Below, piece by piece: positions 31,809 through 63,630 of a stretch of DNA of 64,000 nucleotides. The notes under the pieces were generated by a model. That model was not told the DNA's origin. It saw nothing but the letters and a program-made list of their open reading frames with translations, and did not search any database. Position 1 is the stretch's first letter. Every line of letters starts with the position of its first letter. Origin of the DNA: Bacteroidales bacterium (GTDB lineage Bacteria; Bacteroidota; Bacteroidia; Bacteroidales; JAGOPY01); NCBI GenBank assembly GCA_017991835.1, contig JAGOPY010000001.1:147892-211891 (forward strand), in the 5' to 3' direction. The position numbers and the translations under genes are program-made.

Positions 31809-31945
31809 GTTCAGGGTTCTGTTGTTCCAGTGTTCAATTGTTCTATTGTTCTATTGTTCTGTTGTTCTATTGTTCTGTTGTTCTATTGTTCTATTGTTCT
31901 ATTGTTCTATTTCTATTTCTATTGTCTTTGTCTTTTGTTCCATGG
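31809..31945. repeat. tandem octamers (GTTCTATT/GTTCTGTT), reverse complement of the 9118 array word
   Basis: TTCTATTG is a cyclic permutation of CTATTGTT, which is the reverse complement of AACAATAG. Confidence 0.9.
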
Positions 31946-57136: not shown

Positions 57137-60100
57137 ATGAGTATTTATAAAAGCGCTGTCAACAAACCCATTACCACCGTCATGATATTCACGGCGGTCG
57201 TAGTGCTCGGGTTATACTCGCTCATTAATATACCGATCGATCTGTATCCCGAGATCGAACCGCCCTATATCAGCATCATGACCACCTACGCAGGGGCCAA
57301 TGCCGCGGATATCGAAACCAACATCACCAAGCCGATCGAAGACGCGCTCAACTCCGTCGATAAGCTGAAAGAGGTGACTTCGGTTTCTTATGATAACCTC
57401 TCACTGGTCAGTATGGAATTTGAATGGGGTTCCAACCTCGATGAAGTACTTAACGATGTAAGATCGGTGATCGATGGCGTTTACAATTATCTGCCCGACG
57501 GGTGCGACAGGCCGTCCATCTTCAAGTTCAGTACCAGTATGATGCCGATCTTGTTCTATGCCATCACGGCTGAAGAAAGCTATCCCGGCCTCGAAAAGAT
57601 CATCGAGGAAAAACTGGTCAATCCGCTTAACAGGATCGAAGGGATCGGCTCCATCACCACGATGGGTTCGCCAAAACGTATCATTTACATCGATGTCGAT
57701 CCCCGGAAACTGGATGCTTATGCCCTGAGCCTCGAACAGATCGGTAACACCATCGCAGCCGAGAACCTGAATATGCCTTCAGGGAATGTCAAGATGGGAA
57801 AATTCGATTACCAGCTCAGGGTGGAAGGTGAGTTTGAAGAAAGCGATCATATCAGGGAAATCATCGTCGGTAATATCGGCGGGAAAGCGGTTTACCTGAA
57901 AGATATCGCTACTGTCAGGGATACACTCAAGTATGGTTTTATTGATGAGAAGATCAATGGTAAACAGGGAATGCGCCTCCTGGTCATGAAACAATCGGGA
58001 GCCAATACAGTAAGTATCGCCCGGGATGTTCATGCGAAAATGGATGAGTTGGTAAAAACTTTGCCGCCCGATATCAGTGTAAACCCGATATTCGACAGCT
58101 CCGACTTTATCAAAGGATCCATCGACAACCTGTCGGAAACCCTGATGTGGGCTTTTCTTTTCGTTATCCTGATCGTCTTGTTCTTCCTGGGCCGCTGGAG
58201 GGCAACATTGATCATTATCCTGACCATCCCGATCTCGCTGGTGGTCTCCTTTATCTATCTCTACTTTACCGGCAGTTCGCTGAACGTGATCTCACTCTCC
58301 TCGCTATCGATCGCAATCGGAATGGTGGTCGATGATGCGATCGTGGTCCTCGAAAACATCACCAAGCATATCGAAAGGGGATCCAGCCCGCGGGAAGCAG
58401 CCATTTATGCCACCAACGAAGTGTGGCTGGCCGTCATTATCACCACCCTTGTCATCGTTGCCGTATTCCTTCCCCTGACCATGGTCGGCGGTATGACCGG
58501 CGTGATGTTCAACGAACTGGGATGGATCGTCACCATAACCATTGTGACCTCAACCCTCGTTGCCATCACGCTGACTCCCATGCTCTCCTCGAAATTGCTG
58601 AAAACATGGATACCGAAAGAAAAGTCAATGAATTCAGCTTATGATAAAACCATCCGAAAGGGTCTCGACAAACTGGATAATTTTTATGAGAGAACCATCC
58701 GTTGGGCCCTGCACCATAAAAGCCTGGTCATTATCGTAAGCCTGGCCATATTTATCGGGAGCCTCGTCCTGGGTGCGTTTTTTGTAAAAACCGATTTTAT
58801 GCCGGAAAGCGACGAGAGCAGAATGACCGTCTCTATCGAACTGCAAACAGGCTTGAGAATGGAAGAATCGAAGATCACGGCAGAAAAGGTCGAGAAGATC
58901 ATCCGGGAGCGTTATCCCGAAATTACGATCATTTCGAATTCGACCGGCGCCGACGACGAAGGTAATTTCTTCTCCCTCTTCAGGCCTACGGGGTCGAACC
59001 GGATCAACCTGATGATGCGATTGGCACCGGTGACCGAGCGCAGCCGTTCCGTGTTTGAGATTGCTGACGACTTCCGCAACCAGCTCGATCAGATTGCCGA
59101 GGTGGTCAATTACGATATTGCCACTTCGAACAACATGATGGGCGGCGGATCCAATACCGTTGATGTGGAAATCTTCGGGTACGATTTCAATGAAACGAAC
59201 CGGATTGCCGATGAGATAAAGACACGGATCAGCCGGATACCCGGCGCCAAAGACGTTTCGTTGAGCCGGGAGAAGGACCGTCCGGAACTGCAGATCGTGC
59301 TCGACAGGGAAAAACTGGCCATGAACGGGTTGAACAGCGCGTTGGTGTCGACTTACATCCGGAACCGGGTGGATGGGATGACCGCTTCCAAATTCAGGGA
59401 GGAAGGCGATGAATACAATATTGAGCTGCGGTACCAGGAAGATTACAGGAATTCGATCACCGACCTGGAGGAGATCACTATCATGAATCCTGCAGGGCAA
59501 AGGATAAAACTTAAAGAACTGGGAGAAGTGAAGGAGTACTGGTCGCCGCCGAATATCGAGCATAAACGACGGGAGAGGATTGCCAAAGTATCCGTCAAAC
59601 CGGTCGGGGTGTCGTTGGGAGAGCTTGCTGAAAGCATCAGGAAAGAAGTTGCTTCGGTCGAAGTTCCTCCGGAGATCATGATCAATGTGGGAGGCGCCTA
59701 TGAAGACCAGATGGAAGGCTTCCAGGATATCGGTTTGCTGATGATCATGAGTCTTGTGCTGGTATTTATTGTCATGGCGTCACAATTTGAATCGTTTGCC
59801 ATGCCATTTGTTATCATGTTTTCGATACCGTTTGCCTTCACGGGCGTAGTGCTGAGCCTGTTCCTGACCAACACCACCCTCAGCCTGATCGCCGCTCTCG
59901 GGGCTGTCTTGCTGATCGGGATTGTGGTGAAGAACGGCATTGTGCTGGTGGATTTCATCAATCTGATGCGCGATAGGGGATTTGAGTTGTACGAAGCGAT
60001 TGCCCGGGCCGGGCATTCCCGGTTGCGCCCGGTATTGATGACTGCCGGCACCACTATCCTTGGGATGCTTCCCTTGGCGCTGAGCAAGGGTGAAGGATCG

Positions 60101-60262
60101 GAGATCTGGACCCCGATGGGGATCACCGTGATCGGGGGACTGGTCATTTCCACGATTGTTACGATGGTGATCGTCCCGGTCATGTACGCCATACTTGCCC
60201 GACGGGGTGAGCGTGATAAAAAGACCAGGCTAAGGAAGCGGTTTTTATTCATGGACAAATAA
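57137..60262 (+). CDS. efflux RND transporter permease (AcrB/HAE1-like)
   Basis: 1041 aa, 12-TM AcrB architecture. Motifs include SIAIGMVVDDAIVVLENI and GIVVKNGIVLVDF. Confidence 0.9.
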   Translation: MSIYKSAVNKPITTVMIFTAVVVLGLYSLINIPIDLYPEIEPPYISIMTTYAGANAADIETNITKPIEDALNSVDKLKEVTSVSYDNLSLVSMEFEWGSNLDEVLNDVRSVIDGVYNYLPDGCDRPSIFKFSTSMMPILFYAITAEESYPGLEKIIEEKLVNPLNRIEGIGSITTMGSPKRIIYIDVDPRKLDAYALSLEQIGNTIAAENLNMPSGNVKMGKFDYQLRVEGEFEESDHIREIIVGNIGGKAVYLKDIATVRDTLKYGFIDEKINGKQGMRLLVMKQSGANTVSIARDVHAKMDELVKTLPPDISVNPIFDSSDFIKGSIDNLSETLMWAFLFVILIVLFFLGRWRATLIIILTIPISLVVSFIYLYFTGSSLNVISLSSLSIAIGMVVDDAIVVLENITKHIERGSSPREAAIYATNEVWLAVIITTLVIVAVFLPLTMVGGMTGVMFNELGWIVTITIVTSTLVAITLTPMLSSKLLKTWIPKEKSMNSAYDKTIRKGLDKLDNFYERTIRWALHHKSLVIIVSLAIFIGSLVLGAFFVKTDFMPESDESRMTVSIELQTGLRMEESKITAEKVEKIIRERYPEITIISNSTGADDEGNFFSLFRPTGSNRINLMMRLAPVTERSRSVFEIADDFRNQLDQIAEVVNYDIATSNNMMGGGSNTVDVEIFGYDFNETNRIADEIKTRISRIPGAKDVSLSREKDRPELQIVLDREKLAMNGLNSALVSTYIRNRVDGMTASKFREEGDEYNIELRYQEDYRNSITDLEEITIMNPAGQRIKLKELGEVKEYWSPPNIEHKRRERIAKVSVKPVGVSLGELAESIRKEVASVEVPPEIMINVGGAYEDQMEGFQDIGLLMIMSLVLVFIVMASQFESFAMPFVIMFSIPFAFTGVVLSLFLTNTTLSLIAALGAVLLIGIVVKNGIVLVDFINLMRDRGFELYEAIARAGHSRLRPVLMTAGTTILGMLPLALSKGEGSEIWTPMGITVIGGLVISTIVTMVIVPVMYAILARRGERDKKTRLRKRFLFMDK

Positions 60263-60273
60263 GAAATAGAAAG

Positions 60274-60567
60274 ATGAAAGCGGTATTTATCGTATTTAAT
60301 CAGGCCCATACCGAGAGGGTGGAATACTTGTTCGACAGGCTGGAGATTCGCGGATACACCTGGTGGACCGATGTCCATGGAAGGGGATCGGTGTCAGGAG
60401 AGCCGAGGATGGGCACCCATACCTGGCCGGAAATCAATTCGGCAGCTATGGCCATTGTGGATGACAATGCAGTAGATGAGATCCTGGAAAAAGTCAGGAG
60501 GATCGATGAAATCAACCGGGAAGTGGGAATTCGTGCCTTTGTATGGGATATTCTGAAATCGGTCTGA
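60274..60567 (+). CDS. small PII-like transporter-associated protein
   Basis: 97 aa, starts 11 nt after the RND stop. The beta-alpha-beta pattern (MKAVFIVFNQAHTERVEYLFDRLEIRGYT...) is reminiscent of the PII-like/PG0541-type proteins found next to RND pumps (from memory). Confidence 0.5.
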   Translation: MKAVFIVFNQAHTERVEYLFDRLEIRGYTWWTDVHGRGSVSGEPRMGTHTWPEINSAAMAIVDDNAVDEILEKVRRIDEINREVGIRAFVWDILKSV

Positions 60568-60605
60568 TCATTCGGGAAACAAAACGATTGATATTGTTTC
60601 ATCTA

Positions 60606-60621
60606 ATTAACAATTGTTAAT
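60606..60621. promoter_or_regulatory. perfect 16-bp palindrome ATTAACAATTGTTAAT (candidate operator), copy A
   Basis: Perfect dyad read directly from the sequence. It lies about 80 bp upstream of the -7 box. It is conserved exactly in copy B, while the spacer between it and the promoter has diverged. Confidence 0.5.
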
Positions 60622-60663
60622 AACGGGTGTGATTAACTTGTGGATTGTGAAACATAAAATGGC

Positions 60664-60695
60664 TTGACTTACCCCCCTGTTTCGTTTTACTTTTG
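60664..60695 (+). promoter_or_regulatory. Bacteroidetes-type promoter (-33 TTG, -7 TACTTTTG) for ncRNA copy A
   Basis: TACTTTTG at 60688-60695 matches the TAnnTTTG consensus. TTG at 60664-60666 lies roughly 21 bp upstream. Confidence 0.45.
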
Positions 60696-60699
60696 TTTC

Positions 60700-61075
60700 A
60701 TCAGGTCAGCGATAAAAGACTGGCAAAGGCAGGCAGGATGGAGACGACGCTGAGTCCGCAAGGAGGAGGCAGAGTTCAAAGTCCGCCCCGGACACCGGAG
60801 GCCGAAAGGCGGAGGGGAGCGAGGGGGAGCAAAGACCGGACAACGCCGAAAGGCAGCGCGAGGGAAGGCCGGCCGCCAAAGCCGGGAGCCACGGAAGCTA
60901 AATCCGCCGAAAGACGGACACGCGGAAGGGAACCCGACAAAGAGGAGAAGGAACCGAAAGGAACCGGAACCAAAGGTTAGTCAAAATAACAGTAGCCTGG
61001 CGCAAACCGCAAGCTTCGGCAAACGGCAAGCGAACGGGGATCGATCCGGCGAGGTTCGGTCCCCGTTGTGTTTTT
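60700..61075 (+). ncRNA. candidate structured/purine-rich ncRNA, copy A (family unknown)
   Basis: Bounded by a TAnnTTTG-type -7 box (TACTTTTG, 60688-60695) and an intrinsic terminator (61033-61075). It is much more G+A-rich than the flanks. Local hairpins include TCAGCG/CGCTGA, GTCCG-ccc-CGGAC, several GAAA-capped stems and CGC-aaa-CCG-caa-GC-UUCG-GC-aaa-CGG-caa-GCG. The 5' end is estimated, not mapped. Confidence 0.55.
61033..61075 (+). terminator. intrinsic terminator of ncRNA copy A
   Basis: AACGGGGA (61033-61040) pairs with TCCCCGTT (61060-61067), with an inner CCG/CGG stem. Followed by GTGTTTTT. Confidence 0.65.
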
Positions 61076-61089
61076 AATCAGTTTAAGAT

Positions 61090-61105
61090 ATTAACAATTG
61101 TTAAT
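61090..61105. promoter_or_regulatory. perfect 16-bp palindrome ATTAACAATTGTTAAT, copy B
   Basis: Identical to 60606-60621, offset 484 bp. Confidence 0.5.
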
Positions 61106-61147
61106 AATAGCTGTGAGAAACTTGTGGATTGAGAAAAGTAAAACGGC

Positions 61148-61179
61148 TTGACTTACCCCCCTGTTTCGTTTTACTTTTG
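61148..61179 (+). promoter_or_regulatory. Bacteroidetes-type promoter for ncRNA copy B
   Basis: Sequence identical to 60664-60695. Confidence 0.45.
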
Positions 61180-61183
61180 TTTC

Positions 61184-61560
61184 ATCAGGTCAGCGATAAA
61201 AGACTGGCAAAGGCAGGCAGGATGGAGACGACGCTGAGTCCGCAAGGAGGAGGCAGAGTTCAAAGTCCGCCCCGGACACCGGAGGCCGAAAGGTCGAAGG
61301 GAGCGAGGGGGAGCAATGACCGGACAACGCCGAAAGGCAGCGCGAGGGAAGGCCGGCCGCCAAAGCCGGGAGCCAGGGAGGCTAAACGCGTCGAAAGACG
61401 GGCACGCCGAAGGGAACCCGACAAAGAGGAGAAGGAACCGAAAGGAACCGGAACCAAAGGTTAGTCAAAATAACAGTAGCCTGACGCAAACCGCACGCTT
61501 CGGCAAACGGCAAGCGAACGGGGATCGATCCGGCAAGGTTCGGTCCCCGTTGTGTTATTG
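61184..61560 (+). ncRNA. candidate structured/purine-rich ncRNA, copy B
   Basis: Second copy, offset by exactly 484 bp. The first ~110 nt of the predicted RNA (and the promoter upstream) are identical to copy A. Later differences include a T-A to C-G swap across the GAAA-capped stem (60920/60935 vs 61404/61419). Confidence 0.55.
61517..61560 (+). terminator. intrinsic terminator of ncRNA copy B (weaker U-tail)
   Basis: Same stem (61517-61524 / 61544-61551). The only change is in the loop (G to A). The tail GTGTTATTG is less U-rich. Confidence 0.5.
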
Positions 61561-61583
61561 ATAATATCCTCCGTTTAATTGTA

Positions 61584-61602
61584 TAAAATCCACGTAGTGG
61601 AT
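61584..61602 (-). terminator. candidate intrinsic terminator of dnaG
   Basis: On the minus strand: ATCCAC-tac-GTGGAT hairpin followed by TTTTAT, about 25 nt after the dnaG stop. Confidence 0.45.
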
Positions 61603-61625
61603 ACAGTACGGAAGACCCGCTTTGA

Positions 61626-63563
61626 TTATTTAGTGATTATTCTGCCTAATTTTTGATTAATTTTTATACTGATTTCTTTATAATTCTTATGCCTGGTCTG
61701 TAAAAGCATTATATCTTCCTCACTTGCTGTGACTTTTATTTCTTGCAGAATTTCATTGATCATCCTGTCTATTGTCTTTTCTTTAAACGAAAGTAAAGTT
61801 GACTCAACCGCAAAAAGCAGCTTCTCTTTTTCAGAGTTAACTAAAATTCTTTTTTTTAACCAATTTTCGCTCAACTCATACCGACTACTTAAAATAGTAA
61901 TGACCTCACTAATAAGTTCTTGATCCTGGCCGTCATTGATTAACAATTTTTCATCAGGCTCATTGCCTTCAAGCAACGCCAAATTATACAAATCAAAAAT
62001 CTTTTGATATACTGGATTTGCAAATTTCAAATCATCCTTGTTGACCTCTTCAGTAATATATCTTGCCACACTGATCTTTTGAGCCAATTCATCCTGTTCA
62101 TTAATCTCAATATCATAATTGGAATATAGTAATAACAATCTGATTAAATGATACTCCTGGGATTCTATTTCCTGATTCACCTGTTCTACCTGCCTCGGCG
62201 CCGGCATCTCCGGAATATCCACCTCCTGCCTCGCCGCCTCCTGCTCCGCCTGCTTCCTGTTCTTCTGGTATAATATCTTGTTCAGCGACGACATGAGCAT
62301 CTGCTCCTGCACATCCATCAGCGTACTGCACTCCTTGATGTAGACCGAACGGTAAATCGGATCGGGTATCAGCGATATGCTCCCGACAATCTCTTTGATC
62401 AATCCGGCCCGCTTGATGGGATCATTGGCCGCTTCTTTCAGCAACAGGCTGGTCTTGAACCGGATAAAATCCTGCGCCCCGCCGGTGATCAGCTCCTCCA
62501 GCTCGGCCCGCCGGTGCTTCCGGGCATAAGAATCGGGATCTTCTCCATCCGGAAATAAAACGATCCTGACATTCATTCCCTGCTCCAGCACCATGTCGAT
62601 CCCCCGGAATGAAGCCTTGATCCCCGCCGGATCACCGTCGTACAAAATCGTGATATTCGGCGTGTAACGCTTGATCAGCCGTATCTGCTCCTCCGTGAGC
62701 GCCGTGCCCGATGAAGCCACCACGTTTTCAATCCCGGCCTGGTGCATCGAAATCACATCGGTATAACCCTCCACCAGGTAACAGTTGTCGAGCCGGATAA
62801 TGGCGCTCTTCGCAAAATAAAGGCCGTAAAGGGTCTGGCTCTTGCTGTATATCTCCGATTCGATCGAATTGACATACTTCGGGACGTGGTCGTCCTTCAG
62901 CAAGGTCCGCCCGCCAAAACCCAGAATCCGACCGGTTATGTTGTGGATCGGGAAAATGACCCGGCCCCTGAAACGGTCATAACTCCGGCCGTCTTTCGTG
63001 ATCGTCAGCCCTGTCTTTTCCAGGTACTCCAGTTTGTAGCCGTTCTCCAGGGCGTTCTTCGTGAATGCATCCCAGCTCTCTGGACTGTAACCCAGCTGGA
63101 ATTTTTTGATCGTGTCGGGCTTCAGGTCGCGGCTCTTGAAATATTCAAGCCCGATGGCTTTGCCGGCTTCCGTCTCATGCAGGTTTTGCATGAAGAAATT
63201 CATGGCAAACGCCGTCACCTGGAAAAGCGTTTCCCGTTCATTTTCAATCTGAACATCTTCAGGAGTAATCGAATCCTCCTCGATGGCTATGCCGTACTTT
63301 TTCGCCAGGTAGGTCAGTGCTTCGGGATAGGTGAAATGTTCGTGTTCCATCAGGAAATTCACCACATTTCCCCCCTTACCCGAACTGAAACATTTGAAGA
63401 TCCCCTTGGCCGGCGACACATAGAACGAAGGGTTGCGTTCGGCCGTAAACGGACTCAGCCCCTTGTAATTCTGCCCGCTTTTTTTGAGTTTGACAAATTC
63501 GCCGACAACCTCTTCAATACGGGCGTCTTCCAGAATACGCGCTATGGTTTGTTTGGAGATCAA
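61626..63563 (-). CDS. dnaG: DNA primase
   Basis: Zinc-ribbon region (FYVSPAKGIFKCFSSGKGGNVVNFL), RNA polymerase core, and TOPRIM (YLVEGYTDVISMHQAG...LYDGDPAG). Confidence 0.92.
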   Translation of the reverse strand: MISKQTIARILEDARIEEVVGEFVKLKKSGQNYKGLSPFTAERNPSFYVSPAKGIFKCFSSGKGGNVVNFLMEHEHFTYPEALTYLAKKYGIAIEEDSITPEDVQIENERETLFQVTAFAMNFFMQNLHETEAGKAIGLEYFKSRDLKPDTIKKFQLGYSPESWDAFTKNALENGYKLEYLEKTGLTITKDGRSYDRFRGRVIFPIHNITGRILGFGGRTLLKDDHVPKYVNSIESEIYSKSQTLYGLYFAKSAIIRLDNCYLVEGYTDVISMHQAGIENVVASSGTALTEEQIRLIKRYTPNITILYDGDPAGIKASFRGIDMVLEQGMNVRIVLFPDGEDPDSYARKHRRAELEELITGGAQDFIRFKTSLLLKEAANDPIKRAGLIKEIVGSISLIPDPIYRSVYIKECSTLMDVQEQMLMSSLNKILYQKNRKQAEQEAARQEVDIPEMPAPRQVEQVNQEIESQEYHLIRLLLLYSNYDIEINEQDELAQKISVARYITEEVNKDDLKFANPVYQKIFDLYNLALLEGNEPDEKLLINDGQDQELISEVITILSSRYELSENWLKKRILVNSEKEKLLFAVESTLLSFKEKTIDRMINEILQEIKVTASEEDIMLLQTRHKNYKEISIKINQKLGRIITK

Positions 63564-63630
63564 GGTTATTAATATGCTTTACAAAGATAATAATGCATTA
63601 GAGGGAAGGGGAAATTGTTGATAATATCTT

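Follow-up and report, generated by a model that had tools for sequence, protein, structure and literature searches.

The two tandem units at positions 60606-61562 of a 64,000-nucleotide (nt) stretch of Bacteroidales DNA (the whole of which is referred to below as the window) probably represent two recently diverged copies of a stand-alone structured non-coding RNA gene of approximately 377 nt, from a Bacteroidia family that lies outside Rfam. An earlier note on this DNA had proposed a two-copy RNA with its own promoter and its own terminator that belonged to no listed family, and the anatomy of the repeat, the homologs and the negative Rfam searches all agreed with that description. Tandem Repeats Finder reported one array only, spanning 60606-61556 (score 1741) with a period of 484, 2.0 copies and 95% matches, as expected from the 484-bp unit that the note had seen twice head-to-tail, and the two copies were 95.5% identical. 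The units and the RNAs predicted within them are listed below.

60606 to 61089, forward strand: repeat unit A, 484 bp, comprising operator array, promoter, RNA gene and terminator (Tandem Repeats Finder, pairwise alignment).
61090 to 61562, forward strand: repeat unit B, laid out as unit A, with a weaker terminal U tract (UUGUGUUAUU) (Tandem Repeats Finder, pairwise alignment).
60700 to 61076, forward strand: RNA copy A, approximately 377 nt, with a predicted start at A60700, 5 nt past the -7 box, and a predicted end in the U tract past the terminator hairpin (covariance model R1, 367 bits over 60697-61077; ends taken from promoter and terminator).
61184 to 61560, forward strand: RNA copy B, approximately 377 nt (R1, 356 bits over 61181-61561).

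Each unit opens with the perfect 16-bp palindrome ATTAACAATTGTTAAT, located at 60606-60621 and 61090-61105 as had been described, and none of 100 shuffles gave at least 4 matches to it at up to 3 mismatches. Conservation between the copies was indeed uneven: identity was unbroken from the -33 region to approximately RNA nucleotide 113, 14 differences fell in the RNA body, and the spacer between palindrome and promoter carried 9 differences (about 10 by the earlier count). The duplication is not an assembly artefact, because both copies are present, at the same 484-nt spacing, in two independent assemblies (L114 and L157) and because all four Logan short-read contigs with an identical DnaG (L001-L004) break approximately 120 nt past the dnaG stop codon, at the edge of the tandem repeat. 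Two other assemblies (L006 and L173) stop inside the second copy; the tandem copies interrupt short-read assemblies at precisely the repeat. A second tandem pair was present in L170 (1508-1888 and 1991-2371), a different species whose DnaG is 76% identical to that of the window. Since the copies of this pair are only 84% identical to each other, the duplication would be either recurrent or old, with loss or conversion elsewhere.

Homologs were collected by several routes. With a pattern based on what the promoters and 5′ ends had in common, 89 metagenome stretches were retrieved. When these were combined with the earlier loci and the window, the distance from palindrome to start was 99-101 nt in 94 of 100 pattern matches (93-109 nt was allowed), and the matches are therefore regarded as homologs and not as chance. 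With 3′ ends set by a profile of the 3′ domain, 76 full-length homologs of 291-653 nt were obtained from Bacteroidales and Marinilabiliales metagenome-assembled genomes (MAGs) and from metagenomes, 56 of which remained after dereplication at 97%. The covariance model R1, built on the RNA body alone, found exactly two copies in the 64-kb window and gave 75 further matches at E below 1e-4 in metagenome loci. It also independently recovered L011, L012 and L014, all with the operator. These three, among them L012 from Marinilabiliales, carry a diverged RNA directly after dnaG and were found among 80 DnaG loci taken from species-representative genomes; the RNA was absent next to dnaG in the other 77. 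A search with a translated open reading frame (ORF) led to L005 and L006. L005, a Bacteroidales MAG reached in this way through a spurious ORF, carries only one copy, which occupies the equivalent site, runs convergently towards the 3′ end of dnaG and is preceded by the same palindrome.

Comparison of the homologs defined a core in the constant order P1, A-rich internal loop, P2 and variable central domain, with a UNCG-capped hairpin and then a terminator past P1. Its elements in the window are as follows.

60701 to 60706, forward strand: 5′ strand of P1, UCAGGU, pairing with 60995-61000 (GCCUGG) (pair table, 56 sequences).
61185 to 61190, forward strand: 5′ strand of P1 in copy B, pairing with 61479-61484 (UCAGGU/GCCUGA), the outer U.G having become U-A.
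60707 to 60717, forward strand: 5′ strand of the conserved internal loop, CAGCGAUAAAA, facing AAAAUAACAGUA at 60983-60994.
60718 to 60724, forward strand: 5′ strand of P2, GACUGGC, pairing with 60976-60982 (GUUAGUC) (helix-type table).
61001 to 61032, forward strand: 3′ hairpin directly after P1, with outer CGC/GCG, a CCG/CGG stem, a 3x3 internal loop, a GC/GC stem and a UUCG loop.
61033 to 61076, forward strand: intrinsic terminator, with a hairpin at 61033-61067 followed by UGUGUUUUU.

P1 consists of 6 bp formed between the 5′ end (nt 5-10, NCARGU) and RCYUGN approximately 80 nt from the 3′ end, and 97.9% of its cells were paired. In the 56 sequences the third pair (position 8) was G-C in 49, A-U in 6 and G-U in 1, and the outer pair (position 5) was U-G in 19, U-A in 11, C-G in 14, G-C in 6 and mismatched in 6; the search pattern constrained the 5′ strand only. 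P2 appeared in 27 different complementary combinations of 5′ and 3′ strands, among them GGCUG/CAGUC, GACUG/CGGUC, GGUUG/CAACC, CGCC/GGUG or GGCG, CUGGC/GCCAG and GCCG/CGGC, and six of its seven pairs changed on both sides. This helix was judged by the helix-type table and pair counts, duplex energies of cognate and non-cognate strands being uninformative with so many members sharing a similar P2. Between the two helices the loop follows the consensus SAGCGAUAAAA on the 5′ side and nnAAUAACAGUA on the 3′ side. The search left its 3′ strand, AAUAACAGUA, free, and conservation there was 90-100%: in 55 sequences A63 and A68 were invariant, and A59, U61, A62, C64, G66 and U67 were at least 90% conserved. 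In one member (L106) matching 1-nt insertions occurred on both strands of the loop, giving GUAUA facing UAAAC. A bulged-G (S-turn) motif formed from NGUA and SAG beside P1 is possible.

The 3′ hairpin also covaried, with compensatory changes at seven of nine pairs in 55 sequences; one of them (columns 82-102) was C-G in 21, U-A in 15 and G-C in 6. The UUCG-capped stem with 3x3 internal loops that had been recognized earlier corresponds to 61008-61025 within this hairpin, and the terminator that had been called a good one is likewise real and covarying, one of its pairs being A-U in 9 and G-C in 9 members of the window subfamily. Both terminators escaped a simple terminator scan because their stems are long and interrupted; the stop codon of the convergent dnaG lies approximately 550 nt from the terminator of copy A and 66 nt from that of copy B. 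Taken over P1, P2 and the hairpin, 81.5% of cells paired, compared with 19-40% when partners were slid, and the covariation score was 0.366, compared with 0.224 +/- 0.010 in shuffles (0 of 500 reached the observed value) and at most 0.157 with partners slid. Covariation across homologs, which the earlier note had named as a check, thus exceeded that of every shuffle. G.U pairs were frequent in P1 and P2, and the RNA is assigned to the forward strand because such pairs fit that strand only.

The domain enclosed by P2 is variable in the family and has an unusual composition in the window, where it contains the following elements.

60783 to 60976, forward strand: almost U-free central domain (2 U in 194 nt).
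60801 to 60810, 60845 to 60854, 60903 to 60918 and 60950 to 60965, forward strand: short GNRA-capped hairpins of the central domain.
60869 to 60885, forward strand: CCGGC/GCCGG stem of the central domain.
60755 to 60764, forward strand: GCAA-capped hairpin.

The hairpins are joined by A/G-rich linkers. Depletion of U (T 1.5%, compared with 26% for the window) is the real anomaly here; the stretch of about 50 nt that had been called purine-only contains many C, and GGAACC, given as occurring three times, was counted four times. In the subfamily to which the window belongs, 97.5% of cells were paired, compared with 25-49% when slid, and nine pairs changed on both sides. These include a pair of the hairpin at 60903-60918, where 60903/60918 was U-A in 12 members, G-C in 4 and C-G in 1. 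The same pair distinguishes the two copies in the window. Eight of the 14 differences in the RNA body fell at predicted pairs or adjoining positions, the rest being unpaired: one compensatory double change from U-A to C-G (60903/60918 compared with 61387/61402), two wobble-preserving changes (60810 and 61000), three changes that give two new pairs (60896 with 60924, and 60907) and one pair-breaking change (60904, C-G to G.G). The compensatory changes reported between the copies by the earlier note were thus partly upheld: the change from U-A to C-G and that from C.A to U-A were both found, in one hairpin, but the former lies at 60903/60918 and not at 60920/60935, and the change to G.G occurs there too.

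Larger relatives (n = 10, 491-534 nt) have 94 predicted pairs, 38 of them with compensatory changes, and include the long-range helices GCUC/GAGC, GAAGU/ACUUC and GUCC/GGAC. The U content of the central domain was 3.6-10% in the dnaG-linked subfamilies (approximately 375 nt and 430-490 nt), compared with 16-35% in other members. Judged from this comparison, the RNA owes its purine-rich, U-poor appearance to a remodelling of the variable domain that is specific to this lineage within a broader family of ornate RNAs.

Upstream of the RNA, alignment of 56 upstream regions on the palindrome predicted an operator of four boxes and a Bacteroidetes-type promoter at these positions.

60604 to 60647, forward strand: operator array of unit A (position-frequency table of 56 upstream regions).
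60604 to 60612: box A of this operator, TAATTAACA, inverted.
60615 to 60623: box B, TGTTAATAA.
60628 to 60636: box C, TGTGATTAA.
60639 to 60647: box D, TGTGGATTG.
61088 to 61131, forward strand: operator array of unit B, with boxes at 61088-61096, 61099-61107, 61112-61120 and 61123-61131.
60664 to 60695, forward strand: promoter of unit A, with the -33 TTG at 60664-60666 behind an A tract and the -7 box TACTTTTG at 60688-60695.
61148 to 61179, forward strand: promoter of unit B, with the -33 TTG at 61148-61150 and the -7 box at 61172-61179.

Boxes A and B make up the palindrome, and B, C and D repeat directly at a spacing of 11-13 nt. What had been taken for a palindromic operator is therefore present, but as part of a longer, phased array of four boxes. 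The family consensus is TTATYAACA (inverted) for box A, TGTTnATAA for box B and TGTKnATA for boxes C and D, box C starting 12 nt past the start of box B and box D 11 nt past that of box C. The four boxes are followed by an A tract, the -33 TTG and the -7 box, and the distance from the operator to the -7 box was fixed at 73-75 nt. The search pattern left free boxes C and D as well as the TTAT/ATAA flanks, the TTG at -33 and the TA within the -7 box, and the -33/-7 promoter read earlier was retained in homologs at positions outside the pattern. The complete operator was present independently of the pattern in L011, L012 and L014 and elsewhere by construction. Among 175 fetched loci (approximately 1.8 Mb) the 18-nt palindrome core TATNAACAATTGTTNATA was found only upstream of this RNA, and the predicted operator is dedicated to it.

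The boxes resemble both the phased TGTTA repeats of OmpR/ArcA-type regulators and the DnaA-box consensus TTATNCACA. The latter likeness raises the very unlikely alternative that the DNA itself is functional, as a DnaA-box-like cluster (a titration or reactivation site of the datA/DARS type) or a response-regulator site beside dnaG, with the transcript incidental. The boxes fit TTATN[C/A]ACA, close to that consensus, they are phased 11-12 nt apart, 19 loci have them beside dnaG, and the palindrome is confined to this site. The compensatory changes in P1, P2, the 3′ hairpin and the helices of the large relatives nevertheless show selection on the RNA, and the array stands at its fixed distance from the -7 box in a promoter-like geometry. 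In most clades, moreover, the gene lies away from dnaG. At position 6, boxes A and B have an invariant A that is off the DnaA consensus, this A being one that the search pattern imposed. An origin of replication was considered and rejected, as genes converge here.

The structured RNA gene was found in several clade-specific contexts. A convergent dnaG lay 16-104 nt away in 19 loci, purN lay upstream in 9, and 8 had enolase upstream and UbiD downstream; ileS, GH29 or argS adjoined it at further loci. Seven loci with an RNA between enolase and the UbiD-family decarboxylase (L095, L115, L125, L105, L122, L139 and L087; for example L125 5317-5812) held relatives of 400-520 nt co-oriented with both genes, and a sensor histidine kinase was seen 2-3 kb downstream in this clade.

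These contexts bear on a further alternative, to which we give only a very small chance, namely that the element is a cis accessory of dnaG, a convergent transcript or bidirectional terminator that modulates the 3′ end or expression of this gene. In its favour, the element is convergent with dnaG and within 16-104 nt of its stop codon in most dnaG-linked loci, and an extra operator half-site, TGTTGATAA, lies at 63616-63624, approximately 50 nt upstream of the dnaG start codon. This half-site could be a coincidence or could reflect a shared regulator; over the whole window the box motif showed no clear enrichment (9 occurrences, compared with 4.2 +/- 2.1 expected). Opposed to a cis role is the presence of the same RNA core between enolase and UbiD, near ileS and elsewhere, with dnaG not nearby. 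Furthermore, the RNA ends short of dnaG, with no antisense overlap, and it was retained in three loci where an IS200-like insertion separates it from dnaG. In these, a Y1 transposase (Pfam Y1_Tnp, E = 6e-22) lies between the RNA terminator and dnaG (L092 6271-6765, L117 605-1084 and L170 963-1340).

ORFs of 95 and 111 amino acids (aa) cross the RNA unit, and long ORFs are listed in both orientations, since depletion of U removes stop codons. We regard it as exceedingly improbable that the unit is a duplicated gene for a small, basic, disordered protein of either length, notwithstanding that gene callers place ORFs here, that NCBI annotates hypothetical proteins (P0001 and P0002), and that the alignment to the P0002 ORF in L005 covers 100% of the query with 44% identity. 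The stops are missing from both strands alike. In an alignment of 18 close homologs (A3) every sequence had 3-7 frame-shifting indels relative to the window inside the ORF, and 49%, 54% and 60% of columns were variable at codon positions 1, 2 and 3, which shows no codon periodicity and no third-position excess. The longest open frame jumped between frames among homologs. Moreover, the TTG start of the ORF is the last three bases of the -7 box, and its internal ATG is not conserved in L005. Between the copies, the earlier count of 11 nucleotide differences in the 95-aa ORF, hitting 9 codons and changing the amino acid in 8, was reproduced by the copy alignment. Neither ORF matched a Pfam family, a search of 5.8 billion proteins returned two clusters only (the same-species ORF and one relative), and a protein search with the L012 ORF returned only the query itself. 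The suspicion that coding potential is weak was therefore well founded, and from its indels and its pattern of substitution the unit is not a protein gene. The 99-130-aa hypothetical proteins that public annotation puts on the RNA (GCA_034003905.1, RBS55_06940; GCA_019429045.1, K0B08_02790; and also L012 9922-10314) are artefacts, because U-poor sequence is stop-free, and the annotation of this locus in public MAGs is corrected accordingly.

Rfam 15 (4227 families) was searched with the region of the finding at E <= 10, with the window at gathering score, and with 24 homologous loci, 12 at gathering score and 12 at E <= 1. No family matched in the whole 64-kb window at gathering score or in the 24 loci; overall the searches returned only chance-level tfoR, DdR11 and c-di-GMP-I-GGC and unrelated tRNAs. 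The earlier note could recall no RNA family for this element, and a search of the kind that it suggested, run over 60000-62000 at E <= 10, gave chance-level matches only. The tfoR match (20 bits at 60986-61075 and 17 bits at 61470-61559, compared with a gathering score of 70) was set aside as a chance match. Both RNAs have two hairpins and then a terminator at the 3′ end, and it is this generic arrangement that gave rise to the weak score, but the match spans the generic 3′ hairpins only and tfoR is a Vibrio small RNA. A hairpin similar to helix 8 of the signal recognition particle (SRP) RNA (GCU-GAG-UCC-GCAA-GGA-GGA-GGC) was dropped, as its loop sequences differ and no SRP model matched.

The closest likeness in kind was to OLE, ROOL, GOLLD and the raiA motif, which are also stand-alone RNAs of several hundred nucleotides with many covarying helices, highly conserved unpaired stretches, abundant GNRA tetraloops and a context that points to no target or function. 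The present family differs from all of these in that none of their Rfam 15 models matched the window or the 24 loci, in its occurrence in the phylum Bacteroidota and in its conserved upstream operator array. Unlike ROOL and GOLLD, the window RNA has no phage or tRNA association: its neighbours are chromosomal housekeeping genes, no tRNA gene is present in the 64-kb window, and no IMG/VR viral contig matched this RNA. Unlike OLE, with its oapA/B/C, the family is not accompanied by protein genes of its own. RNase P RNA (type A) is of similar size and resembles the present family in having closing helices nested within one another (P1, P2 and P3) as well as long-range helices, the latter seen here in the large relatives. 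However, the window RNA exists in two copies, its family is highly variable in size, and the universal CR-I and CR-V sequences are absent when the sequence is read for them; RNase P models (types A and B) gave no match at E <= 10 in the window or at E <= 1 in 12 loci. With 6S RNA, including the Bacteroidales form, the family shares a stand-alone gene and a 5′ end paired to the 3′-proximal region, but 6S RNA is a rod of approximately 180-200 nt with a large central bubble, whereas the present family is multi-branched and 291-653 nt in length. Neither 6S nor Bacteroidales-1-type models matched in the window or the 24 loci.

The function suggested earlier was that of a sponge of the CsrB/RsmZ or 6S type, in which RNA polymerase or a global RNA-binding protein would be sequestered by GGA or purine motifs, with the paralogs adding capacity. 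This reading is unlikely. As in CsrB/RsmZ, the gene is independent, with its own promoter and terminator and two copies, and short hairpins are repeated (CGAAAG occurs four times, as does GGAACC). GGA was counted 21 times in copy A and 18 times in copy B, where the earlier estimate had been approximately 20. That estimate was sound for copy A, but compared with 14.6 +/- 2.9 expected from composition the counts lie only about 2 and about 1 standard deviations above expectation, an excess that base composition mostly explains. Furthermore, the loops are GNRA or UNCG (GAAA, GCAA and UUCG) and not A(N)GGA, with GGA mostly in stems and linkers. Models of CsrB, CsrC, RsmX, RsmY and RsmZ gave no match at E <= 10 in 60000-62000 or at gathering score in the window, and the same holds at E <= 10 for 6S. 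Members with normal U and few such motifs retain the same core, in which long-range closing helices and a conserved internal loop (the fold closed by P1 and P2) form a multi-branched structure and not a rod with a central bubble. Bacteroidota are not known to encode CsrA. The sponge proposal is accordingly not supported.

Several points weigh against this preferred reading of a structured RNA gene from an unlisted family. The 5′ and 3′ ends are predictions from promoter and terminator sequence. The search pattern imposed AACAATTGTT, TTTGT and RNA positions 4 and 6-12, and most homologs were fetched with it, so that invariance there is by construction; members without the operator were outside its reach. 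In the window subfamily most pairs are invariant, and the structure of the central domain is supported by few compensatory events. The minimum free energy of the whole RNA was ordinary (z = -0.58) and the case for structure therefore rests on comparative evidence. No protein family recurred beside the RNA across its genomic contexts; clustering of neighbourhoods gave clade-specific synteny and the IS200-like insertion only. A ribonucleoprotein or scaffold role is suggested by architecture only. Finally, no description of this RNA was found in the open-access full text that was searched, which included papers on B. thetaiotaomicron transcriptomes and on the Breaker-laboratory genome screens for large structured RNAs, and an earlier description outside Rfam is possible.

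Directly upstream of the RNA units, at 60274-60567, a 97-aa P-II-like protein (Pfam P-II, E = 2.6e-7) follows a 1041-aa RND pump. In relatives, L005 among them, purN and the RNA are not separated by any part of the TetR-RND-P-II block, which therefore looks like an insertion. Elsewhere in the window, at 31830-31925, just past the end of a coding region, an 8-nt microsatellite (TTGTTCTA / TTGTTCTG) of approximately 12 repeats has 55-59% T and approximately 10% A.

In the model that we propose for the structured RNA, a regulator protein would bind the four helically phased 9-mers, 50-95 bp upstream of the start, and control transcription. The RNA would act in trans as a folded molecule, probably within a ribonucleoprotein or by self-assembly, with the P1-loop-P2 platform serving as the conserved recognition site and the central domain as a replaceable scaffold. 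In the dnaG-linked lineage, remodelling would have turned this domain into a nearly U-free chain of GNRA-capped hairpins, whose loops may make tetraloop-mediated tertiary or quaternary contacts and whose scarcity of U may confer resistance to U-dependent nucleases. The duplication would most simply raise dosage.

Large, highly structured bacterial RNAs of unclear role are rare, and they have repeatedly opened new biology (RNase P, tmRNA, OLE, ROOL and GOLLD). Bacteroidota are not known to have RNA-binding hubs of the Hfq, ProQ and CsrA type, and their RNA biology is poorly charted. It is unusual in evolutionary terms for a single domain of a conserved RNA to show graded depletion of U, and this pattern wants explanation. 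The family already offers approximately 56 distinct members that covary strongly, a conserved core that has been defined and an operator of its own, and it is therefore directly testable. On balance, and by a modest margin of belief, we favour the view that these units belong to a so far undescribed Bacteroidia class of large structured RNAs, which measure 290-650 nt and come near OLE and ROOL in complexity, with a P1/A-rich-loop/P2 platform, a phased four-box operator and, in the lineage of the window, a U-free GNRA array and a duplicated gene; such an array could drive RNA-only higher-order assembly or nuclease-resistant scaffolding. The protein predicted to bind the operator may be similar to DnaA or may be a response regulator, and in either case the RNA would be linked to a global physiological signal.

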